A DNA stretch of 64,000 nt from Deltaproteobacteria bacterium (GCA_016219225.1 JACRBX010000048.1:11952-75951); one strand, 5' to 3'; shown: positions 10,188 through 26,966, counted from the stretch's first letter. Notes: generated by a model from the sequence alone, not told the origin. Numbers and translations are program-made.

Positions 10188-10796
10188 TTACCCGAACAGG
10201 ACCTGAAGCCGCACCAGTCCCTGACCTTCGGACCAGTCCCGCAAAGATAACTCTGGCGGATCCAAAGGCTGCTGATTCATCTCAGCCCCTGTGCAGCTCT
10301 GCCAGCCCTCCTCCGCCAGCCGATTAAAAAGGTCTTTCATCTGCTGGAGGGAGATCAGTATCCCCCGGTTTAAAAAACAGGGACCCAGGTCTTTGATCAA
10401 CAGGTTGAACAACTTAATGGTCAGAAGGCCCCCCGGATGACTGATCCGGTCCGGGATTTCCTGATAGGTAATGGTGTTACGAAAACAGGCCAGCAGGCCG
10501 CCCGTGCGCATGGTGGCTCCCACCAGCCCCGGCAGGGCCGCGGAAAGGGCCAGGGTATCCCCATTTTTGACTACGGCTGCTCCCATTTCGTCCACCGGCT
10601 TTCCATTTAGAAAAAGGGTCTGGATCTTATTGCCTATCTGCCTGGGGCTGAGCCCGTAAACTTCACAGAGAATATCCCGGATGGTCTGGCTTTGTTCGAT
10701 AAACACACCGAACCCCTGCTGCAAGATAGGAAAGAAAGGGATCATCTGCCCGGTTTTGATAAATAGGCGAATATCGGCCATCTCAGGGGCCTTCAT
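10188..10796 (-). CDS. Hypothetical protein (202 aa) upstream of FIST-HK
   Basis: ORF on the same strand 52 nt upstream of the FIST gene; no clear family. Confidence 0.45.
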   Translation of the reverse strand: MKAPEMADIRLFIKTGQMIPFFPILQQGFGVFIEQSQTIRDILCEVYGLSPRQIGNKIQTLFLNGKPVDEMGAAVVKNGDTLALSAALPGLVGATMRTGGLLACFRNTITYQEIPDRISHPGGLLTIKLFNLLIKDLGPCFLNRGILISLQQMKDLFNRLAEEGWQSCTGAEMNQQPLDPPELSLRDWSEGQGLVRLQVLFG

Positions 10797-10995: not shown

Positions 10996-11021
10996 GATAA
11001 ACGGACCCGGAGGAAAAAGGT

Positions 11022-12764
11022 CTACCAGTTGAAAACAGTATCCAGATCTTCGTCTTTGACCTGAAAAGTCACATTGTGGGGCGGAAGCATCTCGGTCTTG
11101 AAAAATCGGGGTAGCCGGTCGTGTTCGGAAGTAAACCCGGCCTTCTTGTTGAACTCTCTTTCGCCCTTCAGAATCGACTTGCCCAATTCTCCGACATCAT
11201 TGGCCGTCAGGTTCAACCCATAAAAGGCATTGATCATGTCGATCAGGGCCTGAAAGGTCTCCGGCTGATCCAGGACGGCAAAGGCAATGAAAAGGCACAT
11301 CCCCGTGGCATCGACAGCCGCTGTGGCAATTTGCAGATTCCGGGAAAGTTCGATCTGCCCTTCAGGCTTGAGGGGGTCAACCGTACCCCCCACCCCCAGG
11401 ATATTGGTGGCCACGGCATATCCGGCCGTATGGTCAGCCCCCATGGGACTGGTGGCATAGGTCACCCCGATCCCTTGGACCCCCCGGGGGTCATAGGCCG
11501 GCATTGCCTGACCCTTGACAACCGGCACCCGTTCAACACCGAAGACTTTACCGGTAACGGCCGCGCCGTTGCCCAGGATCCTCCCCAGATGCGTCCCCTG
11601 CCCCACTTCATTGAGCAACTGGATGGCGGCCGCGGCATCCCCAAAGGGTACCAGGCCGGCCTCCATGGCCACTCCGATGGTGGCGCCCATTTCGATGGTG
11701 TCCAGACCGAAATCGTCGTCCATCCGGTCCAACCGGGCGATGACATCGATATCGCTGATCCCGCAGTTGCCCCCGTGGGCCCAGACCGTTTCATACTCGG
11801 GCTGCTTGGTTAAAAAGGCCCCGTCTTTGTCATAGAAGGTGCCGGAGCAGCGGATGATGCAGCCCCGATGGCAGGGGTGGGTGGCGCTTCCCTTGCCCCC
11901 CCGTTGTTCTTCCAGGGCGGCCAGAGTCTCGCCGCTGATCATGGAACAATTATCAAAGCGACCCCACATGAAGTTTTTGGTCGGATAGGCACCGGCTTCA
12001 TTGAGGACGTTGGTCAGCACATTGGTACCATAGGCCGGGAGGCCTTCTCCGGTGACCGGATGCTTCTTCAGACCGGCCACGAAAACCTGGTTGGCTTCTT
12101 TGAATTTTTCGGGATCTTTGGGCGGCCGCATATTCAGGCCGCTGTCATCGAGCACAATGGCCTTGACGCCCTTGGAACCCATGACCGCACCCACGCCGCC
12201 GCGGCCGGCGTGACGGGTAGGTCTCAGTTCCATATCGGTGACCGCCACGGAGGCCGCACTCATTTTCCGCTCACCGGCCGGACCGATGGAGATGACGGTA
12301 ATCTTGTCACCATATTGCCCTTTCATCCGGTCCACCAGGTCATAGTTGCCGAGATAACGCAGCCCGTTGTCCGCATTGACTTGGACACCGTCCTTGTTGA
12401 TATAGATGTGATACAGGGTATCGTCCGCCGGTTTTCCCTCCAACACAATGGCCGCATAGCCCAGCCTGGCCAGTACCTGTGCGCCCTGTCCCCCGGCGTT
12501 GGCTTCTTTGATCCCGCCGGTCAGGGGGCTCTTGCACCCGACGGACAACCGGCCGGACATGGCGGCCGTCGTTCCGCTCAACAGGCCCGGGGCGATGACC
12601 AGCTTGTTTTCCGCGCCCAGAGGATGACAGAGCGGCGGCACCTCCTTGGCTATGACAGCCGATGTCATGGCCCGTCCGCCTGCCCCGGCGTAATCCCCCA
12701 GGGATGAAACAGTCGTTTGGGGTTCACCATCCGGTCCCATAATGATTCTTAAGATTTTGTCCAT
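11022..12764 (-). CDS. aor: Aldehyde:ferredoxin oxidoreductase (tungsten-containing AOR family)
   Basis: 580 aa; N-terminal domain with MGPDGEP...GLLSGT and a C-terminal AOR domain. Confidence 0.8.
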   Translation of the reverse strand: MDKILRIIMGPDGEPQTTVSSLGDYAGAGGRAMTSAVIAKEVPPLCHPLGAENKLVIAPGLLSGTTAAMSGRLSVGCKSPLTGGIKEANAGGQGAQVLARLGYAAIVLEGKPADDTLYHIYINKDGVQVNADNGLRYLGNYDLVDRMKGQYGDKITVISIGPAGERKMSAASVAVTDMELRPTRHAGRGGVGAVMGSKGVKAIVLDDSGLNMRPPKDPEKFKEANQVFVAGLKKHPVTGEGLPAYGTNVLTNVLNEAGAYPTKNFMWGRFDNCSMISGETLAALEEQRGGKGSATHPCHRGCIIRCSGTFYDKDGAFLTKQPEYETVWAHGGNCGISDIDVIARLDRMDDDFGLDTIEMGATIGVAMEAGLVPFGDAAAAIQLLNEVGQGTHLGRILGNGAAVTGKVFGVERVPVVKGQAMPAYDPRGVQGIGVTYATSPMGADHTAGYAVATNILGVGGTVDPLKPEGQIELSRNLQIATAAVDATGMCLFIAFAVLDQPETFQALIDMINAFYGLNLTANDVGELGKSILKGEREFNKKAGFTSEHDRLPRFFKTEMLPPHNVTFQVKDEDLDTVFNW

Positions 12765-12811
12765 ACGTTCTTCTCCTTTCTGAGTAGTTACTGGTTGGGA
12801 CTTCTGTTTTT

Positions 12812-14011
12812 TTAGAGCTCTTCCTGCTGAACCATCTCCGAGGCCTTACATTGCGCCTCTTCCCATACCTTTTTTATTGGCACATGCTGTTCCCGGGCGA
12901 TCCGTTTACAATCCTCATACTCCGGGGCGATGTTGACGGCCCGGTTATCGAACCGGGCCACTTTGCACTGGACCCGCCCGAAGCGGGTGCTGACCTCCTG
13001 GATCTTTCGGTTGAGCCGCAGACGCTGATCCAGACGCCAGCGCAGTCCGATGGTCGTGGTCTCCCGAAAAATAAAATCGGCCAGACCGGGCAGTTGTTCG
13101 AGACGGCAGAGGATGGTCACCAGGACCCCGGTGCGGTTTTTTTTCATCTGCACCGAAGTGAAAAAAATATCCAGGGCGCCCTGTTGTAAAACCCTTTCAA
13201 TCAAAAAATCATAGAACTGCGGGTTCATGTCATCGATGGTCGTTTCAATAACCGCCGTTTGTTCCACTTCGTATTGGGTCAACCCCTGGGCCGTTTGTCC
13301 GATAAAAAGACGCAACAGGTTGGCCAGGGAGCGATCGGCGGTTCCTGCGCCCTGTCCGACCTTTTCCACGGTCATGGCCGGCATGGGCCCGAATTCGGTC
13401 GCCAGGGTGGTCAAAATTGCGGCCCCGGTCGGGGTAAGCAATTCCCCTTGAACCCCGGTAGCATAAACCGGCTTCCCGATGATCAACTCAGCCGTGGCCG
13501 GGGCCGGCACCGGCAGAAGGCCATGAGCGCATTCCACGGTTCCTGTTCCCACATGGAGTGGCGAGCAATGGATCTTCTCGATCCCCAGTCCCCGTATACC
13601 GATAGCCGCACCGACCACATCAATGATGGCGTCCATGGCGCCTACCTCGTGAAAATGGATGGAAGCCACCTCCGTCTGGTGCACTTTGGCCTCGGCCTCG
13701 GCCAGACGGCTAAAGATCTTCAGACTGTCGTCTTTAATAGCCTGATCCAGACGGCTTTCTTCAATGATCGCCCGAATGTCTTCCAGGTGTCGATGATGAT
13801 GATGGTGATGATCCTGGTCGATAGTCACCAGGGCCTGGCTGCCGGACAACCCTTTTTTAACGACCTTCACGACCTTAAGGTCGTAGTGGGACAACGACAG
13901 CTTGGACAGTTCATTTTGTAGATACTCCAGGGGCAATCCCGCATCCAGGAGGGCCCCCAGAATCATATCGCCGCTGGCTCCGGAAAAACAATCAAAATAA
14001 GCGATCTTCAT
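12812..14011 (-). CDS. larC: Nickel-pincer cofactor biosynthesis protein LarC (DUF111 nickel insertase)
   Basis: N-terminus MKIAYFDCFSGASGDM is typical of LarC; a His-rich linker (DHHHHHHRH) is present; 399 aa. Confidence 0.8.
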   Translation of the reverse strand: MKIAYFDCFSGASGDMILGALLDAGLPLEYLQNELSKLSLSHYDLKVVKVVKKGLSGSQALVTIDQDHHHHHHRHLEDIRAIIEESRLDQAIKDDSLKIFSRLAEAEAKVHQTEVASIHFHEVGAMDAIIDVVGAAIGIRGLGIEKIHCSPLHVGTGTVECAHGLLPVPAPATAELIIGKPVYATGVQGELLTPTGAAILTTLATEFGPMPAMTVEKVGQGAGTADRSLANLLRLFIGQTAQGLTQYEVEQTAVIETTIDDMNPQFYDFLIERVLQQGALDIFFTSVQMKKNRTGVLVTILCRLEQLPGLADFIFRETTTIGLRWRLDQRLRLNRKIQEVSTRFGRVQCKVARFDNRAVNIAPEYEDCKRIAREQHVPIKKVWEEAQCKASEMVQQEEL

Positions 14012-14876
14012 TTTCCATTTTCTCCTTTCTGTTCAGGAGGCTTCCATCCGGGTCCAGGGTTGTTAACCGGGAAAGATCGTTATGGCCGACAGGAGGTTCA
14101 AGAGGTTTTTGCTCTTGGCCGGCCGCGAGCTGATTAATGAGGCTGGCTTGATATCCTGCTCCGAAACCGTTGTCGATATTCACCACAGAGACCCCCGAGG
14201 CGCAACTGTTCAGCATGGAAAGCAGGGCGGCCACCCCCCCAAAACTGGCCCCGTAACCCACGCTGGTCGGAACCCCGATCACCGGACAGGAAACCAGCCC
14301 GCCGACAACGCTGGCCAAAGCCCCTTCCATCCCGGCGATGACGATAGCCACCTTGGCCTTGAATAAATCTTCGCAGGAATTCAGAAGGCGGTGCAGGCCG
14401 GCCACCCCCACGTCGTACAGGCGGTCGACCCGGTTGCCGAGGGTTTCGGCCGTAATGGCCGCTTCTTCGGCTACGGGAATATCGGAAGTGCCGGCACAAA
14501 CCACGGCAATCCGGCCGGATTTTATAACCGGCCTGGGCTTGACGACCACAATGCGGCCCATGGGGTGAAATTGACAGTCGGTGGTGATTTCCAAGATAGC
14601 CTCATGGACCAGGCGGTCGGCGCGGGTGGCCAGGATGTTGCCGTGGTGTTTGGCCATCCTCTCCACTATTCCCTGAATCTGCTCCAGGGTTTTACCTTGA
14701 CAATAGATGACTTCCGGGACACCATTGCGCAGACAGCGATGGTGATCCACCTTGGCATAACCCAGATCTTCGAAAGGCAATTTTTTTAAACGCTCCAGAC
14801 CGGTATCGACACTTACCCGCCCCCCCTGGATATTTTCCAATAGATCTTTCAGTTGCTGTCTGTTCATCTTTTCCAA
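13992..14876 (-). CDS. larB: Nickel-pincer cofactor biosynthesis protein LarB (PurE-like carboxylase/hydrolase)
   Basis: Motifs VVCAGTSDIPVAEEA, DVGVAGLHRLL, IAGMEGALASVVGGLV, IGVPTSVGYGA and LNSCASGVSVVNIDNGFGAG match LarB. Confidence 0.8.
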   Translation of the reverse strand: MEKMNRQQLKDLLENIQGGRVSVDTGLERLKKLPFEDLGYAKVDHHRCLRNGVPEVIYCQGKTLEQIQGIVERMAKHHGNILATRADRLVHEAILEITTDCQFHPMGRIVVVKPRPVIKSGRIAVVCAGTSDIPVAEEAAITAETLGNRVDRLYDVGVAGLHRLLNSCEDLFKAKVAIVIAGMEGALASVVGGLVSCPVIGVPTSVGYGASFGGVAALLSMLNSCASGVSVVNIDNGFGAGYQASLINQLAAGQEQKPLEPPVGHNDLSRLTTLDPDGSLLNRKEKMENEDRLF

Positions 14877-16411
14877 TTCCTGTTTCCGTTTTTCGAAAAA
14901 CGGGCTTTAGCGGTAAAAGGGTTCTGCCAGGGATCCGGCGGTTCAAGGCGAAAGAGGATTACCCGGCCAAAAACGATCCGGTAGAGCCGAAAACTTTTCT
15001 GTTTGATACATCCCCAAAAAACGCCGCTCTGGTAAAAAGCCTGCTCGGATAAAAAGAAGAAAGCAAAAAACGGAAACCCGAGCCTCGGTTTCTTGCGCAG
15101 GTATTCTACCAGGGTCGGGAAGACTATCAAGGCCGTCCCAATCAGCGCCCAATCGCTGAAGGCCCATAATAAAACAAGGATAAGCAGCAGGTAATAGCGG
15201 ATCAGATGATAAGTCAGAAAAAAAATCAAGTGGAAATGGCCTCTGACTACGGCCTCAAAAACCAGACCCCAGCCCGGAATTTGATCCATTTTCCCGCCTA
15301 AACGAATCCGTCGGTAAATAGTCTCGGCTGCCAGGATTCCGATGGCTGGGACCAGCCAGTAAACCGAGCGCGTCCAAAGGGCCGTCAGAACCGCCAGAAA
15401 GAGGCCCAGTCCGCCGGCCTGCCAGGGAAATCGCTTGGAAATCTTGGGGTACCGTTCATACAAGAGGGCCTCGGAGGTACCATAATCGAACCGGCGCCGG
15501 TACCCGGCCATAAAACGGTTGCGGTGTTTATGCCGGACAACGCCTTTGGGAACATAGGTCAGATGATGTCCTGCAGCCATCAGTTTCCAGCATAAATCCA
15601 CGTCCTCGCCCACTCTCAGATCTGCATCCAGCCCGCCGTGCCGATTAAGGGCCTCTTTGCGGACGAGCAAGTTACAGGTGGGGACATAAAAAGGGGAGTG
15701 CTCCCCTTGACCCATGATCGGACGGGGTCCCATATCCAGAGCCGAGCAGACTGCTTCATAACGGTCCATCCGGCTTTCCCGAAAAAAGCCCTCCACCCGC
15801 CCGCCCACCAGGACCAGCCGAGGGTCTTGAAAATAGGGGACCAGATCCTCCAACCACCCCGGATCGGCCAGACAATCGCTATCGATAAAGGCGATGATTT
15901 CTCCCCGGGCCGCGGCCGTGCCGGCATTGCGGGCCGCTGCCGGCCCTTGATTACGGGAAAGGGTAATCAACTGGACCCCGAAGCCTTTAACCACCGCCGC
16001 GCTATCATCCTTTGAAGCGTCATCCACCACGATGATTTCCAGTTTGGACCGGGGATAGCGGAGGGCGGACAACGATTCGAGGCAGGCCGCGATCTCGGCC
16101 GCCCGGTTATAGACCGGAATGATGATAGTGACGAAGGGATAAAAAGGTGCTGGAGAGGGGGCCCATTCCAGAAGGCCGGCCTGATGGAGCCTATCCAGAA
16201 AAGCCCTTTCGGCCGGCCGATTAACGAGGTCTTGATTCTGATCCTGCAAGATACCCTGCTCCAATTTCTTTAGCATCTCAAAGGCCGGGCCATTGACTTT
16301 GATGAGCCTCAACGGATTTTCCTGAATAACCATTCCCCCTTCGGCCGCCGGTTGGAGTCGCACCCCGGACTTCAGGGAATAAGTGCCTTGAAAAGCTGAG
16401 CCGCTCATCAT
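14864..16411 (-). CDS. mftF: Mycofactocin-system-type family 2 glycosyltransferase (MftF-like) with a C-terminal membrane region
   Basis: GT2 core IIIPVYNRAAEI...VVDDASKDDS...IDSDC...GGRV. The start ATG at 16411 overlaps the mftC TGA (ATGATGA), and the gene's 3' end overlaps the larB start by 13 nt. Confidence 0.7.
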   Translation of the reverse strand: MMSGSAFQGTYSLKSGVRLQPAAEGGMVIQENPLRLIKVNGPAFEMLKKLEQGILQDQNQDLVNRPAERAFLDRLHQAGLLEWAPSPAPFYPFVTIIIPVYNRAAEIAACLESLSALRYPRSKLEIIVVDDASKDDSAAVVKGFGVQLITLSRNQGPAAARNAGTAAARGEIIAFIDSDCLADPGWLEDLVPYFQDPRLVLVGGRVEGFFRESRMDRYEAVCSALDMGPRPIMGQGEHSPFYVPTCNLLVRKEALNRHGGLDADLRVGEDVDLCWKLMAAGHHLTYVPKGVVRHKHRNRFMAGYRRRFDYGTSEALLYERYPKISKRFPWQAGGLGLFLAVLTALWTRSVYWLVPAIGILAAETIYRRIRLGGKMDQIPGWGLVFEAVVRGHFHLIFFLTYHLIRYYLLLILVLLWAFSDWALIGTALIVFPTLVEYLRKKPRLGFPFFAFFFLSEQAFYQSGVFWGCIKQKSFRLYRIVFGRVILFRLEPPDPWQNPFTAKARFSKNGNRNWKR

Positions 16412-17439
16412 CCTGTCCCGGCCATCAGAGGTTTGATCTGGACACAGTTCACCAGACATCCGGGGTCCGGCAATCCCAGCCTTCTTTGGGTGTGGTAGGC
16501 AATGGCCGGACAGCCTCCGTGGCACAGGTCGAAGCGGTAACAGCTTTCACAGGATTGTATTTCCAGTCCACGAAAAGACTGAAACACGGCAGAGGTCTCC
16601 CAAATGAAACCGAAGTCTTCCTCCGGCAGCCTTCCGGCCAGAAACTCCAGCTCCTGTAAAAAGGCACAGGGGTAAACCTGGCCCTCGGGAGACAGACAAC
16701 AGGTGAGCTTGCCGGCCCCGCACATGTTTAATCCTAAAGAGCGCCGTTCTTCAGAGGTGACCGAAAAAAAGGAATCTCCGGTGGAAACAGCCAGGTGACG
16801 GCCCAGCCAAAGAGAGAAATCGGCCATTTGCTCAGGGGTGACATTCAGCCCGGACCAGAACCGTTTTCCTCGGCCGGAAGGTCTGAACCGCGAGACCCGC
16901 AGCTTAGCCCCGTAAGCGGCTGCCAGGCCGACCAGCTTGTCTAATTCCGGAAAACTGTATCGGGTCAGGACCGTGTTGATGCTGACCTCGATGTCTCGTC
17001 GGCGTAAACAGTCCAGGGCCTTGAGCACCCGCTGGAAACTCCCCGGACCCCGAACAGCATCATTGGAAGAGGCCGTGGCCCCATCCAGACTGACCTGGAT
17101 ATAGACCAGCCGATGATCCAATCTCCGGGCCGTCTCTTCGTCGATCAAGGTGCCGTTGGTACTGATGCAGGTGACTATCCCTTTTTGATGGGCATAATCC
17201 ATTAAGTCCAAAAAATCCGGGCGCAGGAATGGTTCCCCGCCCCCGATATTCACTTGAAAAACCTTGAGTCCGGCCAACTGATCGATGATTCCGAACCCCT
17301 GGTCCGTGGAAAGCTCGCCCGGTTGTTTTTGCCCGGAATCGGAAAGACAGTGCAGACAACTCAAATTACAGGCATAAGTCACCTCCCAGGTGACGTTTAC
17401 CGGGGCCGAAAGGCCCATCTCAACAAACCGATTCCCCAT
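16408..17439 (-). CDS. mftC: Mycofactocin maturase radical SAM/SPASM enzyme MftC
   Basis: CNLSCLHC cluster motif; FQVNIGGGEPFLRPDF, VQVSLDGATASSNDAVRGPGSF, LRVSRFRPSGRG, GLNMCGAG and C-terminal SPASM cysteines align closely with MftC. Confidence 0.9.
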   Translation of the reverse strand: MGNRFVEMGLSAPVNVTWEVTYACNLSCLHCLSDSGQKQPGELSTDQGFGIIDQLAGLKVFQVNIGGGEPFLRPDFLDLMDYAHQKGIVTCISTNGTLIDEETARRLDHRLVYIQVSLDGATASSNDAVRGPGSFQRVLKALDCLRRRDIEVSINTVLTRYSFPELDKLVGLAAAYGAKLRVSRFRPSGRGKRFWSGLNVTPEQMADFSLWLGRHLAVSTGDSFFSVTSEERRSLGLNMCGAGKLTCCLSPEGQVYPCAFLQELEFLAGRLPEEDFGFIWETSAVFQSFRGLEIQSCESCYRFDLCHGGCPAIAYHTQRRLGLPDPGCLVNCVQIKPLMAGTG

Positions 17440-17701
17440 GAATGAGACCTTTTTCTTCCAGAAGTTGTATCAGTTGCCTTAGCTGCCGGTCGATCCATTC
17501 CCGGGGCCGGGTGCTTCCGGCCTGCAGCGCTTCCGCCCAGTCATTGATCCGCGTTCTCCCCTCAAAAAGACCTTCGTCGAGAAACTCTCCGCTGGCCAGA
17601 AAATAAAGCCGGGGCCCCCGGTAGTTATAAAAAAGAAGGCCGAATTTTTCCCGGCGCACCTGAACCCCGACCTCTAAATGATAAATCCGATTGGATTCCA
17701 T
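17420..17701 (-). CDS. mftB: Mycofactocin chaperone MftB (PqqD-family RRE protein)
   Basis: 93 aa; the motif EKFGLLFYNYRGPRLYFLAS matches the MftB FGALxYHxxxRRLxFL signature. Confidence 0.8.
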   Translation of the reverse strand: MESNRIYHLEVGVQVRREKFGLLFYNYRGPRLYFLASGEFLDEGLFEGRTRINDWAEALQAGSTRPREWIDRQLRQLIQLLEEKGLIHGESVC

Positions 17702-17715
17702 ATTAAATCCTCAAA

Positions 17716-17746
17716 GCCCCAGGGGGCACCACGAAACATGAAAAAG
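17716..17746. repeat. Intergenic repeat module copy (GGCACCACGAAACATGAAAAA) between mftA and mftB, with 8-mer tandem tail to 17940
   Basis: agccccagggggcaccacgaaacatgaaaaagg, followed by gattcaagg and ggaatcct arrays. Confidence 0.7.
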
Positions 17747-17942
17747 GATTCAAGGGGTCCAGGGGCCAAGGATTCAAGTGAAAGGCGTGGAATTTAAAAC
17801 CCTGCGATTCCCCGGAGGGGAACCTTTTCTATAGCTCGACGAATCGGCTCCCAAAAGGGGGCCTCTTCGGAAGCTCGGCAGAGCCGAGCGGGTCGAGCGG
17901 CTGAACCCTCGAATCCTGGAATCCTGGAACCCTATTTTCGAA

Positions 17943-18077
17943 CTAATATATCCCGCAAATGCCGTCTACGGCCAGTTCTTCAAGAACAAAATCCTCGAGG
18001 ATCTTCGGCTGTTCCTGAATCTGCTCATCGGCCCTGATTTCTATGGTTTTGTTTTCCATTTCCAGTACTGAGATCAT
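17943..18077 (-). CDS. mftA: Mycofactocin precursor peptide MftA (44 aa, ends VDGICGIY)
   Basis: C-terminus EELAVDGICGIY versus canonical IDGMCGVY. Start chosen at MISV... because GGAGAAATACC precedes that ATG; the longer tracked ORF is treated as an upstream extension. Confidence 0.75.
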   Translation of the reverse strand: MISVLEMENKTIEIRADEQIQEQPKILEDFVLEELAVDGICGIY

Positions 18078-18110
18078 GGTATTTCTCCTTTGCTGTTTTC
18101 GTATTAAACC

Positions 18111-18155
18111 GCCATGCCCCGCCTTTTGGGGCATGGCACCACGAAGCATGAAAAT
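18111..18155. repeat. Intergenic repeat module copy (hairpin gccatgcccc..ggggcatggc + ACCACGAAGCATGAAAAT) with a partial second copy and GAACTCC 7-mer array to 18285
   Basis: Direct reading; located between the SDR gene and mftA. Confidence 0.7.
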
Positions 18156-18291
18156 AGGCTCCTTGGAAGACGGATGCTATTTTCGAACTAAACCGTCATG
18201 CCCCTGGACGCCAAGAAGCATAAAAAAATTTTCTCCGAACTCCGAACTCTAAACTCCTAACTCCGAACGACGAACACCGAACGGCATTTTC

Positions 18292-19101
18292 TTACGGCGC
18301 CTTGGCTGTCCAGCCGCCATCAACGGTAATCATGTTGCCGGTGATGCAGCGGGCTTCGTCGGTCACCAGCCAGCGTACAGCCCGGCCGATATCCTCGGGG
18401 GAGACCTCGGGGTCTTTGATCATGTGGCCGGCAAAAAATTGTTGCTTGGCCTCTTCCCCCTCCAGTCCGAAGTAAGCGGCTATTCCTTGCATCATGGGGG
18501 TCCAGACCGTGCCGGGACAGACCACATTGCAGCGGATATTGTGATCGGCCACCTCCATGGCTATTGATTTATTGAGACCGATGATCCCGTGTTTGGCCGC
18601 ACAATAATGGCCGCCCATGCCAAAGCCGCGCTGGCCGCCCACTGAAGAAATGCTGACCACGTTGCCACTATGCTGCTCAATCATATGGGGGAGAACATAC
18701 CGGCAGCATAAAAAGGTTCCCTTCAGATGGGTGTCCAGGACCTCGTCCCAGATTTCTTCGTCCATTTCGGCTATAGCCACCATGGAGGTGTTGCCGGCAT
18801 TATTGACCAGGATGTCGATCCGGCCGAAGACCTCCATCACCTGTTCCACCATGGCTTCCACGTCGCCCCTCTGCCGGACATCACACTTGAGTCCCATGGC
18901 CCGGCGCCCCATAGCCTGGAGGCCGGCCACAGCCTCGTTCATTGATTCTTCAGTGGACATATCGTAGGGGATGGTATCCATGTTGGCACAGATGTCGGCC
19001 ACGGCGATATGGGCCCCTTCTTCGGCCAGACAGCGGGCAATCGCCAAACCGTTGCCCCTGGCTCCTCCGGTGACGATGGCCACCTTACCTTCCAGTTTCA
19101 T
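18292..19101 (-). CDS. Mycofactocin-coupled short-chain dehydrogenase/reductase (SDR subfamily)
   Basis: N-terminus KVAIVTGGARGNGLAIARCLAEEGAHIAVADIC matches the mycofactocin-associated SDR signature (TGAARGQG...DIC); immediately upstream of mftA. Confidence 0.7.
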   Translation of the reverse strand: MKLEGKVAIVTGGARGNGLAIARCLAEEGAHIAVADICANMDTIPYDMSTEESMNEAVAGLQAMGRRAMGLKCDVRQRGDVEAMVEQVMEVFGRIDILVNNAGNTSMVAIAEMDEEIWDEVLDTHLKGTFLCCRYVLPHMIEQHSGNVVSISSVGGQRGFGMGGHYCAAKHGIIGLNKSIAMEVADHNIRCNVVCPGTVWTPMMQGIAAYFGLEGEEAKQQFFAGHMIKDPEVSPEDIGRAVRWLVTDEARCITGNMITVDGGWTAKAP

Positions 19102-19161
19102 GCATTGGCTCCTTTCATTGCATTCAGCAGTTTATATCATCCAAATTCCAAATTATCCGGT

Positions 19162-19473
19162 TTAAAATTTTTGCAGCAGTTCCTGGAGCATGCGGATATC
19201 CTCGGAGGCCACACTGGCGCCATACTCAGCCACCTGAAAATCCAGCTCCTGCTGCAAGGAAGACAAAATCATCAAGGCATCCAGGTAATAGACCAGCTGC
19301 GGATTATGTTTAAAATCATCCTGATACCGTTCTAACAGGCTGTTGACCTCCAGCGCTTTCAACCGGTCGAAATAAGTCGCCTGATCGATCCGGTCCCGCA
19401 GGAAGCCGTCCATGAGATCGATGGCCTGATGGGCCGCCTTAACCACAGGTTCATGAATCGGATGGGGCATCAT
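19162..19473 (-). CDS. Hypothetical protein (103 aa)
   Basis: ORF overlapping the next gene by 4 nt. Confidence 0.4.
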   Translation of the reverse strand: MMPHPIHEPVVKAAHQAIDLMDGFLRDRIDQATYFDRLKALEVNSLLERYQDDFKHNPQLVYYLDALMILSSLQQELDFQVAEYGASVASEDIRMLQELLQKF

Positions 19474-19799
19474 ATAGGCCTTTCGGGTGAAGATTCAAGT
19501 CCATAACGGGCCAGGCTGGCCTCAGCCCTGGGGGTGATGATAAAACGGATGACGGGGCCGCTATCCGGTCGATCCACCCGCTCCCGCTCGACCAGCCCCA
19601 GGCGAAGCAGCGTCATTAACCGGTTCTTCACCCCCTGGGAGGAGATATTCAGGATCCGGCCGAAGGTATGGCAGTGAAACTCCCCAGGTTTGCGGTGGTG
19701 GCAGGTGCCGGTACAATAAGTGCCGCCTTCTTTTTTCAAAATATTCAGGATCTCGATCAAATCTGCACTTAATGGCGGCCCGGCCATGGCCATATTCAT
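19470..19799 (-). CDS. Putative Cys/His-containing winged-helix DNA-binding protein
   Basis: HTH-like segment RILNISSQGVKNRLMTLLRLGLVERE and a CTGTCHHRKPGEFHCH motif. Confidence 0.4.
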   Translation of the reverse strand: MNMAMAGPPLSADLIEILNILKKEGGTYCTGTCHHRKPGEFHCHTFGRILNISSQGVKNRLMTLLRLGLVERERVDRPDSGPVIRFIITPRAEASLARYGLESSPERPI

Positions 19800-20158
19800 C
19801 AGGTCATCCGGACTACAAACGTTTTGGTCTTATGGATCAATTGGTCCAACTCAGCGGTGAGATCTTTGGTGATCTCCAGAGACTTCGCCTCGTCACCAGC
19901 GGTCATGCTGTCCTTCAGCTCCAAGGCCTTTTCCTTCATGTCCCAGGCGGTTTCCCCGGCCTTAACGGTTTTCAGGTAGGCCATTTTAATTATTTTTTCA
20001 AGTTCAGCACTCCGTTCCCCTAATTGAGAGGTGATCAGCAAAGCGGCTTCCTGGGATAATCCCTGGGAGTTGGCTTGAATGGCCTGGAATACCTCCAGCA
20101 TTTCACGAGTCAAGGTAGGGCCTTTACCCACCACGTTCGGTCTGCTCTTTTCCGTCAT
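19799..20158 (-). CDS. Hypothetical protein (119 aa)
   Basis: ORF directly abutting the adjacent genes on the same strand. Confidence 0.4.
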   Translation of the reverse strand: MTEKSRPNVVGKGPTLTREMLEVFQAIQANSQGLSQEAALLITSQLGERSAELEKIIKMAYLKTVKAGETAWDMKEKALELKDSMTAGDEAKSLEITKDLTAELDQLIHKTKTFVVRMT

Positions 20159-20161
20159 TGA

Positions 20162-21088
20162 TTAACTGCTCCTTTCCATGGCTTCTTGATAGCCTTGTAA
20201 CTTTGGCTTATGATGATCACGACCCATTTCCCAGGGCCGCTCTGACACCACTACTTTTTCACGTGGCGGCAATTGCAAAAGCAGCCGGTCGGCAATCCCC
20301 ATCATGGCTTTGGCCGACAAAGACTCCGGATTTTTATAGACAATGGGTATACCGCTGTCGGCCGCTTCGGAATATTGTCCATCCAGAGGGATCCCCCCTA
20401 AAAAAGGGATTTCGAAAGTTTTGGCCAGCCGCTCGCCGCGGTCTTTTCCAAAAAAGTGTTCGATCCGTCCACAATCCGGACATTGGTAGTGGTTCATATT
20501 TTCAATGAGTCCCAGAATGGGCGCCTTCAATTCCCGGGCGGCATTAATGGCCTTGCTGCAGACAATGGTGGAGATCTCCTGGGGTGTGGTGACCACGATC
20601 ATGCCGTCCAGGTCCGGTATGGACTTCATGATGGTGATCGGTTCATCCCCTGTCCCCGGCGGCAGGTCCACGAATAAAAAATCCATTTCATACCACTTGA
20701 TGGAACTCAAAAACTGCCTGAGCACCCGGGCCTTATATTGTCCACGCCACATGATGGGGGTCATCTCTGTCGGCCAGATCAAGGCCACAGACATAACCTT
20801 CAACCCCTGGGCGGTTATGACCGGATCGATTCCGTGAGAGCCGTGCAGGATATCCCGCATCTCAGTCCGGATGCCGACCATCTTGGGAACGCTCGGACCA
20901 TGGACGTCGGCATCGAAAATCCCCACGACCAGATCTTTCTTGCGAACGGCGGCTGCCAGGTTGACCGTCACACTGGTCTTGCCCACGCCGCCTTTTCCGC
21001 TGATAATGGCGATTTTATAATTGACCTTGGCCATGGCATCGCGAATAGGGCCATGGTGATGATGCGGCTGGTGATCCATTGAATCCAT
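20162..21088 (-). CDS. apbC: Mrp/NBP35 (ApbC) family Fe-S cluster carrier ATPase
   Basis: Walker A IAIISGKGGVGKTSV, a CPDCG motif and an N-terminal His-rich stretch. Confidence 0.85.
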   Translation of the reverse strand: MDSMDHQPHHHHGPIRDAMAKVNYKIAIISGKGGVGKTSVTVNLAAAVRKKDLVVGIFDADVHGPSVPKMVGIRTEMRDILHGSHGIDPVITAQGLKVMSVALIWPTEMTPIMWRGQYKARVLRQFLSSIKWYEMDFLFVDLPPGTGDEPITIMKSIPDLDGMIVVTTPQEISTIVCSKAINAARELKAPILGLIENMNHYQCPDCGRIEHFFGKDRGERLAKTFEIPFLGGIPLDGQYSEAADSGIPIVYKNPESLSAKAMMGIADRLLLQLPPREKVVVSERPWEMGRDHHKPKLQGYQEAMERSS

Positions 21089-21184: not shown

Positions 21185-22294
21185 CTATCCTGCGGAAAAA
21201 AATTCAAAAGTCCGGCTTCCGAGTCCTGATTGCTCGGCGTAGGCCAGCAGGTGTTCGGGGGTCTGGCCGGTGATGGCCTTAATTTTATCTTCCCCCTTGT
21301 CCAGGACCTTCAGGTCCTGGGCGATGGATCCTGGTATTCCCGGACTCCGAAGGATCATCTGGGTCGTGGCCCAATCGACAGCCACGGGATCACTGGATGC
21401 GATAATGCCGAGATCCGGCACGAACGGGATATCGGAAAAAGGGAATTCATCGGGCTGGGGGGTGACGGAACTCAGAAAATTGATAAAGAAGGCCTTCCCC
21501 CGCAGTTGGCTGAGGACCGTCTGGGCCGCCTCGATGACACATTCCTGAAAGATTGGCAAGCCCTCCGGCTGGATATGAATCGCCCGGCTTGGACAGCTTA
21601 CAAAACACCCCAGACAACGGTTGCAGACCCGGGGGTCGAATGTTACCCGGCCGGGTTCACCGGCCATGGCCTTGGTGGGACAAAAGGACAGACAAATGCC
21701 GCAGTGATCACATTTTTCGGCCTCGTACTCGATTTGCAGACAGGCATGGACCTTGAGTTTTCCGGAAGCGGTCAGAAAGCCCAGTCCGAGGTTGTAAAGG
21801 GCGCCGGCAATCCCGAGCAGCGGATGGGCGGTAATGTGTGAAACAACGATCAGATTACCGGTGTCGGTTAGCAAGCTGCCGATGTCGATACCGGCTAAAT
21901 GCCGGCCATCGGCCGGCCAGAATTTACCTTCTTCGTTGGTATAGCCCCCTGATTGCAGCAATTGGTTATGAAAGGTCTCTCCGCTGCTGAACCCCTGCAG
22001 TAAAGCCCCATCAACCCAACTGTAGCCATCAAAGCGCGAGCCCTTATAAAGGCTGCAACCGTCGGTCAACAGGGGCTTGGCACCCTGGGACCGGGTTTTT
22101 TCAAACAAGGTGCTGAAGATGACCGGCGGAAGATAATGACCGTAGCCCATTTCGCTTAGATTAAACTTAATGGCCAGGCTGATCTCCGGGACCACCAGGG
22201 AGGCCAATTCTTCCAGGCTCAGCAGGGTGTCGATCTTGCTGATGAGATTTTTTTCACAGGTTTCTGATCGGCCTTTAATCCAGTAGACATTCAT
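21185..22294 (-). CDS. DUF362 domain protein with 2x[4Fe-4S] ferredoxin domain
   Basis: CDHCGICLSFCP and CNRCLGCFVSCP motifs embedded in a DUF362-like fold; 369 aa. Confidence 0.7.
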   Translation of the reverse strand: MNVYWIKGRSETCEKNLISKIDTLLSLEELASLVVPEISLAIKFNLSEMGYGHYLPPVIFSTLFEKTRSQGAKPLLTDGCSLYKGSRFDGYSWVDGALLQGFSSGETFHNQLLQSGGYTNEEGKFWPADGRHLAGIDIGSLLTDTGNLIVVSHITAHPLLGIAGALYNLGLGFLTASGKLKVHACLQIEYEAEKCDHCGICLSFCPTKAMAGEPGRVTFDPRVCNRCLGCFVSCPSRAIHIQPEGLPIFQECVIEAAQTVLSQLRGKAFFINFLSSVTPQPDEFPFSDIPFVPDLGIIASSDPVAVDWATTQMILRSPGIPGSIAQDLKVLDKGEDKIKAITGQTPEHLLAYAEQSGLGSRTFEFFSAG

Positions 22295-22304
22295 ACTAAG
22301 CCCT

Positions 22305-22467: not shown

Positions 22468-23826
22468 TTAGATGGTTGGGTCAAAATTTTTCCAATCCCC
22501 GAGCCACTTGTCGAGGGGTTCGCGGTTGAAGGGAAACTCCCGGGCGATGTGATGGTTCTTGAATACATGCCGCATGGGCGTAACGGTCATCGGAATCTTG
22601 CGGATCTGCCACTTGGCGATATTCTCCGGATTGAGCTCCGGTTCATATTCGATCAATTCGTAATTCATGGTCCCCATGCCGATCTTCTCGGCCGCCTTGA
22701 GCTGAATTCGAGGCGTAAAGGCGTTGACCGCTTTAAATTTGTCTTCGCCCGGTTTGAGTCCCAGTTCCTCGGCCCTGGAGTTGGGGCCGATGGGGGCCTT
22801 GTCGATCATGTCGCAGACGGCCGAATCGATGGCCACCGGGTCTTTGGAGGCGAACACCCCCACATCCGGCGCCACATAGGTGCCGTTCCAGGGGAAGCAG
22901 TCACACTCCGGGGCAATGTCGAAGGCATAGGCCATGTAACCGATCTTGCCCGGTTTAAAGGTTTTGATACAGCCCAGGGCCGCGTCCGACATGGCGATTT
23001 GGGCCAGCGGGAAATAATCATCCCGAAAACCGATACCTTCCATCCCGGTAAACATACAGGTCACCTGGCAGGAATAGCACAGGCAGCACTTGGCATAGTC
23101 GATCACCACCCCATCGGGTTTGACGGTGATGGCCTCATCCGGGCAACTGTCTTCGCACATCTTGCTGAAGGGACACTCGGTGCCCTTACAGGAAGTCCGG
23201 TTGACCTTGGGATAGCCGATGGCTTCTTCCGGATCGCCCCAAAAGGCCAGGTGCGTCTGGTACTTGCCCCGTTTGGACTGGGCCCCGATGCCGAAGTTTT
23301 TGATGCATCCGCCATAGGCGGTAATGGGATGTCCCTTGGCGTGGGCCAGGTTAATGATGGCATCCGCTTCGTAGATCCCGCGGCCGATATAGGTCTCTTT
23401 TAAGATGTTGCCTTCGGGCAGTTCCACCCGGAGGTCGTCTTCACCGAAAAAACCATCGGAGATGATGAAAGGCGCGCCCAGGCTGGCCCAGTTCAAACCA
23501 TGACGATTGGCGCCTTCCTGTTCCAACTGCCCGGTGCAGCGGTTGTTATAGAGATGATAGGTCAGCGTGGTGGTGTCGGTGACAAAGGGCCGACCGCCGC
23601 AGGCCTTCACTTCTTCCACGATGGCGGCCACAAATTCCGGTCGCAGACAGGCGGTTCGATTCCATTCGCCGCAATGAACCTTTACCGCGACGCTGTCGTC
23701 CTTTTCAATGCACTGGTCAAGGCCGGCGGCATAAAAAAGATCCTTGGCCTTGCAGATGGTGCTTTCCGTCCAGTTCGTCGCGCCGGAGGCCGCGAACCAG
23801 ACCTTGGAGGATTTATTTTTGGACAT
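22468..23826 (-). CDS. DUF362 domain protein with 4Fe-4S ferredoxin domain (paralogue)
   Basis: CKGTECPFSKMCEDSCP and CCLCYSCQVTC motifs; 452 aa. Confidence 0.7.
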   Translation of the reverse strand: MSKNKSSKVWFAASGATNWTESTICKAKDLFYAAGLDQCIEKDDSVAVKVHCGEWNRTACLRPEFVAAIVEEVKACGGRPFVTDTTTLTYHLYNNRCTGQLEQEGANRHGLNWASLGAPFIISDGFFGEDDLRVELPEGNILKETYIGRGIYEADAIINLAHAKGHPITAYGGCIKNFGIGAQSKRGKYQTHLAFWGDPEEAIGYPKVNRTSCKGTECPFSKMCEDSCPDEAITVKPDGVVIDYAKCCLCYSCQVTCMFTGMEGIGFRDDYFPLAQIAMSDAALGCIKTFKPGKIGYMAYAFDIAPECDCFPWNGTYVAPDVGVFASKDPVAIDSAVCDMIDKAPIGPNSRAEELGLKPGEDKFKAVNAFTPRIQLKAAEKIGMGTMNYELIEYEPELNPENIAKWQIRKIPMTVTPMRHVFKNHHIAREFPFNREPLDKWLGDWKNFDPTI

Positions 23827-24074: not shown

Positions 24075-24089
24075 GCAAGTATCGTGCCT
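24075..24089 (-). promoter_or_regulatory. Sigma-54 (-24/-12) promoter candidate directed at the DUF362 gene
   Basis: Minus strand reads AGGCACG-ATAC-TTGCT, matching TGGCACG-N4-TTGCW with correct GG/GC spacing; lies between the NtrC-type regulator gene and the DUF362 gene. Confidence 0.5.
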
Positions 24090-24395: not shown

Positions 24396-25730
24396 TTACG
24401 AAAATATCTTATAGGTTTTGATTTTTTTGTAGAGGGTCTTGCGGTTGATTCCCAGGACTTCGGAGGCCCTGGTCTGGTTGCCTTCTGTTTCGGCCAGAAC
24501 GTTCATGATGTGTTCTTTTTCCATATCCTCCAGGGTCTTGGGCTGACGTGAGGTATCATAATGCCTGGCCTTCACCTGGGCCGGAAAATCCTCGGCCCGG
24601 ATCATTGAGTCGGCCAATAAAGCGGCCTTGCCGATGACGGCCTTCAACTCCCGAATATTCCCAGGCCAGGGATAATCGGCCAAGACCCCCAGGGCCTCTT
24701 TGGAAATATCCATTTTCTGTCCGTCTTTAACATAATGGCCTAAAAAATATTTGGCCAGGATGGCAATATCTTCAGGCCTTTCCCGCAGCGGAGGGATCGG
24801 TATCACAAATTCGGTCATGCGGTAGAACAGATCGCTTCGCAGGTCTCCCTTGCGGATGGCTTCCTGCAGATCCAGATTGGTGGCCAGGATGATGCGGGTG
24901 TCGATGTGTTGTTCTTTCACCTCACCAATCCTCCGGAACCGGCGGGTCTCTAAAAAGCGCAGAAATTTTTTCTGCAGCTCCATGTCGATGTTGCCGATTT
25001 CATCCAGAAAAAGAGAGCCGGCGTGGCTTTTTTCCACCAGCCCCAGCTTGGCTTCGGTGGCCCCGGAGAAAGCCCCTTTACGGTGGCCGTAGAGCTCGCT
25101 TTCAGCCAGATTATGAGAAAGGAGCCCGCAATCCACCGTCACAAAAGGCCCGTCCTGGCGCAGACTTTGTTGATGGATCTGGAAGGCCAGCACGTCTTTC
25201 CCGACACCGGTTTCCCCTTGGAGCATAACGGTGTAATCGGTTTTGGCCACCCGGGCGATCAGGTCGTAGACCTTTTCCATGCCCGGGCTCGGACAAAGGA
25301 CGATAGGCGGGGTTTCCGAAGGCCTTTCCCCGGTCCATTCCGGTTTGGACAGAGATTTTTCCCGAACCTCCTGGACGGCTTTTTTGACGATGGAAAGCAA
25401 TTCATCGAGTTTGAACGGCTTGGTCAGGTAATCCCGGGCCCCTAACTTAAGGGAATCCACGGCTGTTTGAATATCTCCGTAAGCCGTGATCATGATCACT
25501 TCAGGAGCGGGATCCTTTTTTTTCAACCTCCGGAGGACTTCGATACCGTTCATTCTCGGCAGCCGGATATCCAGCAAGACCACATCAAAAGAATTTTCCT
25601 CGAATAATTTCAGCCCCTCTTCTCCGCTTCCGGCCGTGGTGACCTTGAAGCCTTCCAGGGAAAATTCATTCCTGATCAGATGCCGGATATTCGGCTCGTC
25701 ATCGATGGCCAGAATTTTTCCCTGATCCAT
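24396..25730 (-). CDS. Sigma-54-dependent response regulator (NtrC family)
   Basis: Receiver ILAIDDE...VLLDIRLP, AAA+ domain GETGVGKDVLA and GAFSGA, C-terminal HTH. Confidence 0.9.
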   Translation of the reverse strand: MDQGKILAIDDEPNIRHLIRNEFSLEGFKVTTAGSGEEGLKLFEENSFDVVLLDIRLPRMNGIEVLRRLKKKDPAPEVIMITAYGDIQTAVDSLKLGARDYLTKPFKLDELLSIVKKAVQEVREKSLSKPEWTGERPSETPPIVLCPSPGMEKVYDLIARVAKTDYTVMLQGETGVGKDVLAFQIHQQSLRQDGPFVTVDCGLLSHNLAESELYGHRKGAFSGATEAKLGLVEKSHAGSLFLDEIGNIDMELQKKFLRFLETRRFRRIGEVKEQHIDTRIILATNLDLQEAIRKGDLRSDLFYRMTEFVIPIPPLRERPEDIAILAKYFLGHYVKDGQKMDISKEALGVLADYPWPGNIRELKAVIGKAALLADSMIRAEDFPAQVKARHYDTSRQPKTLEDMEKEHIMNVLAETEGNQTRASEVLGINRKTLYKKIKTYKIFS

Positions 25731-26955: not shown

Positions 26956-26966
26956 GGCATCCCCGT

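Follow-up and report, generated by a model that had tools for sequence, protein, structure and literature searches.

For mycobacteria, mycofactocin biosynthesis is considered solved, and MftE and MftD are regarded as indispensable in it. PMC11778925 describes what MftC, MftE, MftD and MftF do in the canonical pathway. MftD and MftE are not universal, as some species lack them, and the dehydrogenases associated with the pathway depend on it (Haft 2011). A variant type of the pathway is already curated in NCBIfam as a precursor model and a short-chain dehydrogenase (SDR) model (NF040489 and NF040490), and NCBI names homologous peptides in Desulfobacterota MAGs "variant-type mycofactocin precursor"; the variant is thus less new than the first-pass annotation had taken it to be. 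The window analyzed here, a 64-kb stretch of DNA, comes from an anaerobic member of the Desulfobacterota of the sulfate-reducer type. The SDR, MftA, MftB, MftC and MftF-type GT2 that had been recognized in it are all encoded on the minus strand where they had been placed, and all score above the NCBIfam curated cut-offs, as follows.

18292-19101, minus strand: SDR, mycofactocin-coupled short-chain dehydrogenase subfamily 3 (NF040490, 542 bits against a cut-off of 385), presumed to use the cofactor
17943-18149, minus strand: mftA open reading frame (NF040489 "variant-type mycofactocin precursor", 56.9 bits against 30)
17943-18077, minus strand: mftA, variant-type precursor of 44 aa, MISVLEMENKTIEIRADEQIQEQPKILEDFVLEELAVDGICGIY (NF040489)
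17420-17701, minus strand: mftB, precursor-binding chaperone (TIGR03967, 48.4 bits against 33)
16408-17439, minus strand: mftC, radical SAM/SPASM maturase (TIGR03962, 367.5 bits against 265)
14864-16525, minus strand: mftF, GT2 glycosyltransferase, open reading frame (TIGR03965, 375.8 bits against 280)

The NF040489 precursor and NF040490 SDR, each above its cut-off, form the pair that defines membership of the variant system. The start of mftA is most likely the ATG at 18077, which is preceded by an AAGGAG ribosome-binding site seven bases before, and public assemblies contain the exact 44-aa peptide. The mftF gene most likely occupies 14864-16411 (minus strand): its presumed ATG, at 16411, and the mftC stop codon overlap as ATGA, and a second ATGA overlap links the mftF stop codon to the start of larB. 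The 3′ end of mftB overlaps the 5′ end of mftC by 20 nt, and the start of larC overlaps the end of larB by 20 nt as well; these overlaps, from mftB/mftC through mftC/mftF and mftF/larB to larB/larC, indicate that the genes are co-expressed. MftC, aligned with four canonical MftC proteins (approximately 45% identity), retains the CX3CX2C motif (C24, C28 and C31) and the SPASM cysteines. In 23 of 27 related loci, the SDR gene is the immediate upstream neighbor of mftA.

The precursor does end in Ile-Tyr rather than Val-Tyr, as had been noted from its GICGIY terminus. The C-terminus of the window MftA is DGICGIY, preceded by V (VDGICGIY; tail ...EELAVDGICGIY), and it departs from the canonical IDG-x-CG-Val-Tyr ending (Haft 2011), as Ile takes the place of Val. 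MftA barely exceeds the cut-off of TIGR03969 (26.2 against 25), compared with its 56.9 bits for the variant model. When MftA C-termini were compared among close relatives of the window MftC (at least 69% identity), Ile-Tyr was found in 24 of the 25 loci whose precursor is on the contig, with the nearly invariant tail EEL[AD][VI]DG[IV]CGIY, a pattern that speaks for purifying selection. Ile-Tyr at the terminus thus stably marks the variant MftC clade; the one close relative with a Val-Tyr tail (L041) has the same gene context.

The first-pass annotation had also reported that mftD and mftE are absent from the cluster, and this holds well beyond it. The material comprised 64 kb of the source genome and at most 10 kb on either side of related loci. 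A Pfam scan of approximately 45 ORFs of at least 150 aa, covering the whole 64 kb, revealed no FMN_dh or creatininase domain, and tblastn of the window with three MftD, two MftE and one MftG references gave a best E of 0.4. No match to MftD or MftE at E ≤ 0.05 was found by tblastn in the window and 51 related loci (620 kb of flanks), and the locus contains no MftR. The locus comparison covered 93 non-redundant mftC loci in three groups. Within readable flanks, MftD/MftE occurred in 0/27 loci with a close MftC relative and 0/25 loci of a second, anaerobe-type clade with Val-Tyr tails, against 20 of the 41 canonical loci; the difference between groups is significant among loci with at least 3 kb downstream (Fisher p = 4.6e-4). 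As the Ile-Tyr and Val-Tyr clades lack MftD/E alike, the lack is clade-wide and not tied to Ile-Tyr, so that a coupling of the Ile-Tyr tail to MftD/E loss is not supported, also in view of L041. The modified maturation route that had been suggested fares better: with the MftD/E absence and the Ile-Tyr signature both clade-wide, a non-canonical route is a fair inference.

An alternative account is that the standard pathway operates with dispersed genes, mftD and mftE lying elsewhere in the genome, and that the product is mycofactocin plus one methylene. The 64 kb are a part of the genome; in Thermomicrobium roseum another gene separates mftD from mftABCF and no mftE is annotated nearby; and among canonical loci with at least 3 kb downstream, 12 of 26 also show no D/E in their flanks. 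This account is nevertheless unlikely when set against the complete absence from both anaerobe-type clades over 620 kb of flanks at E ≤ 0.05, the presence of MftD/E in 9 of the 11 canonical loci that have at least 4 kb on both sides, and the existence of species without MftD/E (Haft 2011).

The absence of two canonical genes, together with that of MftF in some relatives, might also suggest a decaying, non-functional remnant left after the loss of mftD and mftE. The conservation data already contradict this reading, whose probability is negligible: every ORF is intact and above curated cut-offs, the overlapping start and stop codons are preserved, and the precursor tail and MftC motifs are conserved over many lineages at 70-95% identity. 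Precursor and maturase are under clear constraint despite the missing MftD, MftE and MftG.

The mft cassette is nested in a conserved DUF362/LarB-LarC/AOR operon and translationally coupled to larB-larC, and this is the most informative feature of the locus, one that the first-pass annotation had overlooked. The surrounding features, in the direction of transcription, are listed below.

26967..28127, minus strand: iron-type alcohol dehydrogenase family protein (Pfam Fe-ADH; NCBIfam ErcA, 491.5 bits against 550)
25765..27036, minus strand: PAS sensor histidine kinase (Pfam PAS_4, HisKA and HATPase_c; syntenic in relatives)
24396..25730, minus strand: sigma-54-dependent response regulator (NCBIfam AtoC/NtrC-type matches; orthologues with a Sigma54_activat domain)
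24075..24089, minus strand: sigma-54-type promoter-like site AGGCACGATACTTGC, with the first DUF362 gene 263 nt downstream
22468..23826, minus strand: DUF362a, LarA-like fold with an inserted ferredoxin-like cysteine-rich domain
21185..22294, minus strand: DUF362b, with a 2×[4Fe-4S] ferredoxin insert (Pfam DUF362 and Fer4 families)
20162..21088, minus strand: Mrp/NBP35-type P-loop ATPase (Pfam ParA/NUBPL; NCBIfam MrpORP, 288.8 bits against 450; ApbC), a probable Fe-S cluster carrier
19162..20158, minus strand: three small conserved ORFs of 119, 109 and 103 aa (ORF calls; conserved in relatives)
13992..14867, minus strand: larB, nickel-pincer nucleotide biosynthesis carboxylase/hydrolase (NF033503, 299 bits against 175)
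12812..14011, minus strand: larC, fused LarC1 and LarC2, nickel insertase (TIGR00299, 224 against 90; NF052512, 142 against 50)
11022..12764, minus strand: aldehyde:ferredoxin oxidoreductase (AOR) family protein (Pfam AFOR_N and AFOR_C; syntenic in relatives)
10188..10796, minus strand: conserved 202-aa protein 3′ of AOR (conserved in L003, L006, L009 and L010)

Contigs of Desulfobacterales, Syntrophobacteraceae, Desulfosarcinaceae and Olavius symbionts share the gene order that runs from the ADH-like gene to AOR. The Fe-ADH protein has the regulatory ErcA family as its best match, at a score below the ErcA model cut-off, and its gene is the first of a conserved ADH, kinase and sigma-54 regulator trio that is found upstream in related loci too. 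The motif GGCA[CT]-N5-TTGC occurs once in the 64 kb and lies 250-455 nt upstream of the orthologous DUF362 gene in 8/11 related loci, including that of Pelotomaculum. Terminator-like hairpins of the regulator gene sit just ahead of the sigma-54-type site. The whole operon is probably driven by sigma-54 and possibly responsive to alcohols or aldehydes. PDB sequence matches of DUF362b are confined to its ferredoxin domains. The small ORFs have weak MarR_2 and HTH_24 matches only, with a weak winged-helix signal in the 109-aa ORF, and pairs of ORFs of 100-120 aa also occur 3′ of the ATPase gene in Pelotomaculum, a Thermococci MAG and a Desulfobaccales MAG. As judged by equivalog models, LarB and LarC are bona fide, and lar genes are present in all 14 related loci having enough downstream sequence, among which mftF is absent from four (approximately 30%). 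Pfam scans of the window revealed no LarA (DUF2088). With the L001 LarE as a tblastn query (TIGR00268, 318.5 bits against 150), a threshold as permissive as E ≤ 10 gave no match in the window, L006 or L003, and LarE was found in most other related loci. The 202-aa protein has no Pfam or NCBIfam match.

The locus is probably a working variant-type mycofactocin system whose core is finished by enzymes that are not orthologues of MftD/E, and this route is likely to be oxygen-independent. The following scheme is inferred as regards the chemistry of MftC on Ile-Tyr, the way in which the core is released and oxidized, the use of the product as a cofactor and the enzymes that replace MftD/E. The 44-aa MftA would be presented by MftB to the radical-SAM enzyme MftC, which would decarboxylate the C-terminal Tyr and then cross-link it to the β-carbon of the preceding Ile, giving a 4-ethyl-4-methyl analogue of the AHDP lactam. 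The core would be freed and oxidized to a redox-active keto-amide by enzymes not orthologous to MftE/MftD, and MftF, where present, may glycosylate the product, which is expected to re-oxidize the NAD(H) bound tightly by the neighboring subfamily-3 SDR. The cassette is one module of a larger operon comprising AOR, two LarA-fold Fe-S proteins and nickel-pincer biosynthesis genes. Because the MftD/E absence is clade-wide and shared with the anaerobe Val-Tyr clusters, it points to an alternative finishing route and not to a consequence of Ile-Tyr. The absence of MftF from approximately 30% of relatives and of LarE from the window implies that some steps can be dispensed with or have their genes at other sites. 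Against this explanation stands the window Fe-ADH, whose motif VVSNPRDFQVE is unlike the mycofactocin-linked TSNPKDYEVH (Haft 2011).

The conserved block shows no candidate peptidase, which also weighs against the favored scheme, and encodes no deaminase, and approximately 30% of loci do without MftF, whose canonical substrate is the released core. The MftC product might accordingly never be released or deaminated, remaining a peptide-bound factor or another RiPP instead of a small redox carrier. We consider this very improbable, as most loci retain MftF and the subfamily-specific "mycofactocin-coupled" SDR adjoins the cassette in 23/27 loci, such an adjacent SDR being the hallmark of a cofactor-user pair in the analysis of Haft.

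As for the enzymes that would finish the core in the favored variant-type system, one tentative proposal is that DUF362a and DUF362b carry the nickel-pincer nucleotide produced by LarB/LarC/LarE and stand in for MftD, perhaps for MftE and MftG as well. They would take a hydride from the α-carbon of the lactam, present as an amide, amine or alcohol, and their [4Fe-4S] clusters would receive the electrons, such that the keto-amide would be both made and re-oxidized without oxygen. DUF362 and the LarA N-domain belong to one Pfam clan, and H166, K176 and H192 of DUF362a are invariant, with spacings of 10 and 16 residues that equal those of the functional residues H174, K184 and H200 in the LarA sequence. 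The mft cassette has the DUF362 genes on one side and larB/larC on the other, with translational coupling to larB, lar genes accompany it in 14/14 loci, and DUF362a/b adjoin larB/C(/E) in Pelotomaculum and the Thermococci MAG. No DUF2088-type LarA was found in the window by the Pfam scans. The field expects nickel-pincer proteins still to be discovered, approximately 15% of genomes having larBCE without larA, and the mycofactocin couple, an α-hydroxy/α-keto amide, would be chemically near LarA substrates.

Several observations weigh against this proposal, which we regard as unlikely. Aligned profile to profile, DUF362a and LarA give no significant match (probability 0.06%, E 0.73), although the alignment path pairs H166 with H174 and K176 with K184; DUF362b has, by inspection, a Tyr at the position of DUF362a K176. 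The DUF362 module occurs without mft in the Pelotomaculum locus and the Thermococci MAG and without adjacent lar genes in Desulfobaccales L110; in DUF362 modules without mft or lar, the constant neighbor is AOR. The window lacks LarE, and to our knowledge no nickel-pincer enzyme is a net dehydrogenase. The wider claim, that the variant mft cassette and the nickel-pincer genes are parts of a single system in which DUF362a/b act on the α-carbon of the MftC-made lactam, replacing MftD (possibly MftE) and MftG in strict anaerobes, is rather improbable. If true, DUF362a/b would be the first non-racemase nickel-pincer enzymes, LarA-fold Fe-S dehydrogenases, and a peptide-derived carrier would be wired to ferredoxin-level electron transfer beside AOR.

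In two whole MftC clades, on contigs from anaerobic lineages, none of the flanks that could be read encodes MftD, MftE or MftG. This turns the question of an oxygen-independent finishing route, or of another final cofactor, into a concrete, testable problem, and the predicted product is an Ile-derived analogue with a mass shift of +14 Da. The larB/larC coupling and the LarA-fold Fe-S proteins provide named candidates for nickel-pincer users, which concern the approximately 15% of genomes with larBCE and no larA.

Among known systems, PQQ biosynthesis (PqqA, PqqD and PqqE) likewise yields a peptide-derived redox cofactor by means of a chaperone and a radical SAM/SPASM enzyme, and PqqE is a detectable homologue of the window MftC (123.6 bits). 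The PQQ protease is often encoded outside the PQQ operon, so that a cofactor cluster lacking its own peptidase gene has a precedent. PQQ differs in its precursor, its cross-link and its final chemistry, and there are no PqqB/PqqC homologues at the window locus. With the LarA/LarB/LarC/LarE lactate racemase system the window shares LarB and LarC, and most related loci share LarE; the LarA fold is common to DUF362a. Neither a DUF2088-type LarA nor LarE was found in the window, however, and its LarA-fold proteins carry ferredoxin-like inserts and show no detectable sequence similarity to LarA.

The Val-Tyr anaerobe clusters (Geobacter/Desulfotomaculum type; Haft 2011) have an MftC clade 50-60% identical to that of the window, and they also lack MftD/MftE in all 25 loci, often contain MftF and have adjacent alcohol dehydrogenases; in L046, the Fe-ADH motif TSNPKDHEVH is close to the mycofactocin-linked motif of Haft. 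They differ in keeping Val-Tyr, in having no SDR subfamily 3, DUF362 or larB/C, and in encoding an Old-Yellow-Enzyme-type FMN and FAD protein directly 3′ of mftC (19 loci) or EtfAB and FixCX after mftC (6 loci). The canonical mftABCDEF(G) system of Mycobacteria and other Actinobacteria has the same MftA, MftB, MftC and MftF families, a dedicated nicotinoprotein SDR, an MftC approximately 45% identical with the same Fe-S motifs, and the same DG-x-CG-x-Y precursor terminus. By contrast, the window locus has Ile-Tyr in place of Val-Tyr, lacks MftD, MftE, MftG and MftR, encodes an MftC that is shorter at both termini, is associated with a sigma-54 two-component system in place of the TetR-type MftR, and is embedded in the DUF362/Lar/AOR operon. 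From the NCBIfam variant type (NF040489 and NF040490, Desulfobacterota MAGs) it shows no membership-level difference and is a member of that type. No description of the clade-wide MftD/E absence, the optional MftF or the Lar/DUF362/AOR context was found in the searchable literature, and these are the features that the present comparison adds to the variant type.

Regarding the mycofactocin cassette, five ORFs are located on the minus strand at 14864-19101, and each of them scores above its curated NCBIfam cut-off, in agreement with the first-pass annotation, which had recognized an SDR-mftA-mftB-mftC-mftF locus at this position.

Genes of the mycofactocin cassette, with NCBIfam scores
18292-19101, minus strand: SDR, NF040490 'mycofactocin-coupled SDR, subfamily 3', 542 bits versus a cut-off of 385
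17943-18149, minus strand: MftA ORF ending in DGICGIY, NF040489 'variant-type mycofactocin precursor', 56.9 versus 30
17420-17701, minus strand: MftB, 48.4 versus 33
16408-17439, minus strand: MftC, 367.5 versus 265
14864-16525, minus strand: MftF, 375.8 versus 280

The precursor was also correctly read as ending in IY instead of VY, and the standard MftA model gives it a score of merely 26.2 versus a cut-off of 25. Reading of the DNA refines the mftA start to the ATG at 18077, 3′ of an AAGGAG site, giving a 44-aa peptide that is already on record in identical form in public assemblies, and refines the MftF start to 16411, where the start codon and the mftC stop overlap as ATGA. In alignments, the window MftC shares approximately 45% identity with four canonical MftC proteins and retains both the CX3CX2C motif and the SPASM cysteines, the main difference being its shorter termini. 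The closest genome match to this MftC is found in a Thermodesulfobacteriota MAG (95% identity), and the clade is abundant in Desulfobacterota metagenomes, comprising hundreds of clusters at 74-95% identity. That such a cassette represents a dead cluster is extremely improbable. The variant-type precursor and the SDR are each already modelled in NCBIfam, and the NCBI name 'variant-type mycofactocin precursor' is attached to homologues of the peptide in MAGs of Desulfobacterales and Syntrophobacteraceae; the locus is a member of an annotated yet uncharacterised variant of a known system. A literature search found no description of this variant, its maturation or its gene context, and no publication tying mycofactocin to Desulfobacterota or to the nickel-pincer nucleotide. 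New here are the statistics across the clade, the finding that MftF is optional, and the embedding of the cassette in a sigma-54/DUF362/Lar/AOR operon (Lar, nickel-pincer nucleotide biosynthesis; AOR, aldehyde:ferredoxin oxidoreductase family protein).

Repeat units flank mftA at 17725-18282. A unit of approximately 30 nt occurs twice upstream of the gene (18091-18120 and 18175-18204), and a 15-nt core is found again at the stop codon of mftA (17932-17946); three copies of a 20-nt unit lie at 17725, 18135 and 18207, and a tandem with a 14-nt period at 18233-18282. Searching 9000-29000 against Rfam at E ≤ 0.1 returned no RNA families, leaving these repeats unmatched. They may act on the precursor transcript, as stability or attenuation elements.

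The reported lack of mftD and mftE in the cluster was borne out across the window, in which no FMN_dh or creatininase domain was detected among approximately 45 ORFs of at least 150 aa, and reference MftD, MftE and MftG proteins (from annotated Tsukamurella, Thermomicrobium, Mycolicibacterium and Haloterrigena plasmids) gave no match better than E = 0.4. Related loci were pooled from exact-protein look-ups, a genome scan and an alignment-based metagenome scan, those with an identical MftC sequence were dropped, and the remainder were sorted by identity to the window MftC. As the single-protein scan of genome contigs yielded 11 true relatives, the statistics rest on the alignment-based metagenome scan.

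Compared mycofactocin loci; Lar counts in group 1 and all MftF counts refer to loci with at least 3 kb downstream
Group 1, close relatives, MftC identity at least 69%, 27 loci: tails IY 24, VY 1 (L041), precursor off contig 2; MftD or MftE 0/27; Lar genes 14/14; MftF 10/14
Group 2, VY-tailed anaerobe clade, MftC identity 50-60%, 25 loci: tails VY 21, precursor off contig 4; MftD or MftE 0/25; Lar genes none; MftF 9/9
Group 3, canonical loci (IDG[ML]CGVY), MftC identity <50%, 41 loci: tails VY 26, FY 1, not found 14; MftD or MftE 20/41; Lar genes none; MftF 18/26

Since MftD or MftE is found in none of the group 1 or group 2 loci versus 20 of the 41 in group 3, their absence is a trait of entire clades rather than a peculiarity of the window contig. 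Where 3 kb or more of downstream sequence is available, group 3 retains MftD or MftE in 14/26 loci, differing from group 1 (Fisher, p = 4.6e-4) and from group 2 (p = 5e-3); where each flank extends 4 kb or more, the proportion in group 3 is 9/11. In the 620 kb of sequence covered by groups 1 and 2, MftD, MftE and MftG gave no matches even at E ≤ 0.05. It is conceivable that mftD and mftE are dispersed elsewhere in the genome, where these loci would not reveal them, and we regard this as unlikely. One group 1 locus (L041, 9164-9608 region) carries a precursor ending in GICGVY beside an MftC of 70% identity, with the SDR, Lar, DUF362 and AOR surroundings unchanged, and Ile and Val are thus interchangeable within this architecture. 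Because the VY-tailed group 2 and this VY-tailed member of group 1 also lack MftD and MftE, the missing genes are not tied to Ile-Tyr. Comparison of MftA C-termini therefore supports IY as a clade marker, and not as the cause of gene loss; the first-pass proposal of a modified maturation route or a different cofactor is partly supported, the absence of MftD and MftE holding clade-wide without being linked to the IY tail.

In canonical mycofactocin biosynthesis, MftC performs decarboxylation and cyclisation of Val-Tyr, MftE releases AHDP, MftD deaminates AHDP to the redox-active keto-amide, and MftF adds glucose units (PMC11778925). Acting on Ile-Tyr, MftC would generate a 4-ethyl-4-methyl lactam that is 14 Da heavier; it is expected to handle Ile because this residue, like Val, has a tertiary beta-carbon. 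Release and oxidation of the core would be performed by enzymes non-orthologous to MftE and MftD, the replacement for MftD being presumably oxygen-independent, and the subfamily-3 SDR would be the client of the cofactor according to the dependency argument of Haft. A peptide product that is never released also comes into consideration, and it is rated as quite improbable. We rather favor an Ile-derived mycofactocin-like cofactor, finished by non-orthologous enzymes and used by the SDR.

The gene order is constant in all group 1 loci with enough flank: an ErcA-like Fe-ADH, PAS histidine kinase, sigma-54 response regulator, DUF362a, DUF362b and Mrp-type ATPase are followed by two to three small ORFs, the SDR, mftA, mftB, mftC, mftF and larE (the last two in some loci), and then by larB, larC, AOR, a 202-aa ORF, and a FIST protein with a kinase. 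LarB and LarC of the window exceed their equivalog cut-offs. Translational coupling joins the mycofactocin genes to the nickel-pincer genes through 20-nt overlaps (mftB/mftC and larB/larC) and ATGA overlaps (mftC/mftF and mftF/larB). A sigma-54-type promoter-like site, AGGCAC-N5-TTGC, is located at 24075-24089 (minus strand), 263 nt upstream of DUF362a and 3′ of terminator-like hairpins of the sigma-54 regulator gene; it is the sole such site in the window, and an equivalent site recurs in 8/11 related loci. Gene content varies within the clade (window 12812-16411 compared with L001, L003, L010, L014 and L016): mftF is missing from L003/L004, L010 and L016, with a remnant alone left in L014, and larE, found in most relatives, is not present in the window, L006 or L003. 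The Fe-ADH was considered as a mycofactocin-dependent dehydrogenase and dropped, as its motif is unlike that of Haft and the family it matches best, at a score below the cut-off, is the regulatory ErcA. The ATPase likewise matches MrpORP, which would connect it to the Desulfovibrio 'orange protein' complex, below the cut-off.

DUF362 and the LarA N-domain belong to the same Pfam clan. H166, K176 and H192, invariant across the DUF362a family, are spaced by 10 and 16 residues, as are H174, K184 and H200 of LarA, for which 2015 work by Desguin and colleagues reportedly established roles in catalysis (H174), cofactor tethering (K184) and nickel binding (H200). When the PDB was searched by sequence with DUF362a, DUF362b or the profile of the DUF362a family, ferredoxin domains were the only matches, and LarA was not among them; the family HMM was not significant against LarA motif peptides, nor was the hhalign alignment with LarA, along the path of which H166 falls opposite H174 and K176 opposite K184. 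Because the profile comparisons were not significant, the residue-level equivalence is one that we infer from spacing and fold. Oxidation of the core by DUF362a/b with the nickel-pincer cofactor is weighed as a possible route, and an unlikely one. The module of DUF362a, DUF362b, Mrp-type ATPase and two small ORFs also occurs without mft genes: in Pelotomaculum thermopropionicum SI with larB/larC and the same ADH-kinase-sigma-54 trio, in a Thermococci MAG with larC, larB and larE, and in a Desulfobaccales MAG with AOR and no lar genes nearby; more distant homologues have neither. As mft-free and lar-free instances exist, the module is independent of mycofactocin, and its association with Lar is frequent, not universal. 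Since AOR is a frequent neighbor, the module may instead serve AOR.

Two features lie in the outer window. A Pup-ligase family protein is encoded at 2383-3858 (plus strand; Pfam Pup_ligase, 375 bits) in this apparently Desulfobacterota genome; the family is best known from Actinobacteria. Upstream of the locus, 30467-57229 (minus strand) is a long run of catabolic genes, including two TRAP transporter sets, three acyl-CoA synthetase-like genes, an HpaB-family protein, a three-subunit xanthine-dehydrogenase-type molybdoenzyme, FAD-linked oxidases with a CCG Fe-S subunit, and a carboxyltransferase.

Group 2 (L042-L062, L064, L067, L071 and L075; for example L058, 6880-20377) has a different neighborhood. 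In 19 loci, an Old-Yellow-Enzyme-type FMN and FAD protein lies directly 3′ of mftC, the canonical mftD position; EtfA, FixC, FixX and EtfB follow in six, and one lineage has a true LarA homologue approximately 9 kb away. The FMN/FAD architecture is common to trimethylamine and histamine dehydrogenases, which oxidize C-N bonds and reduce ETF, making this protein a plausible oxygen-free stand-in for MftD. Haloterrigena likewise has Etf and Fix genes, there adjoining mftF, and mftABC thus appears to be paired with different electron-transfer modules in different anaerobic or archaeal lineages.
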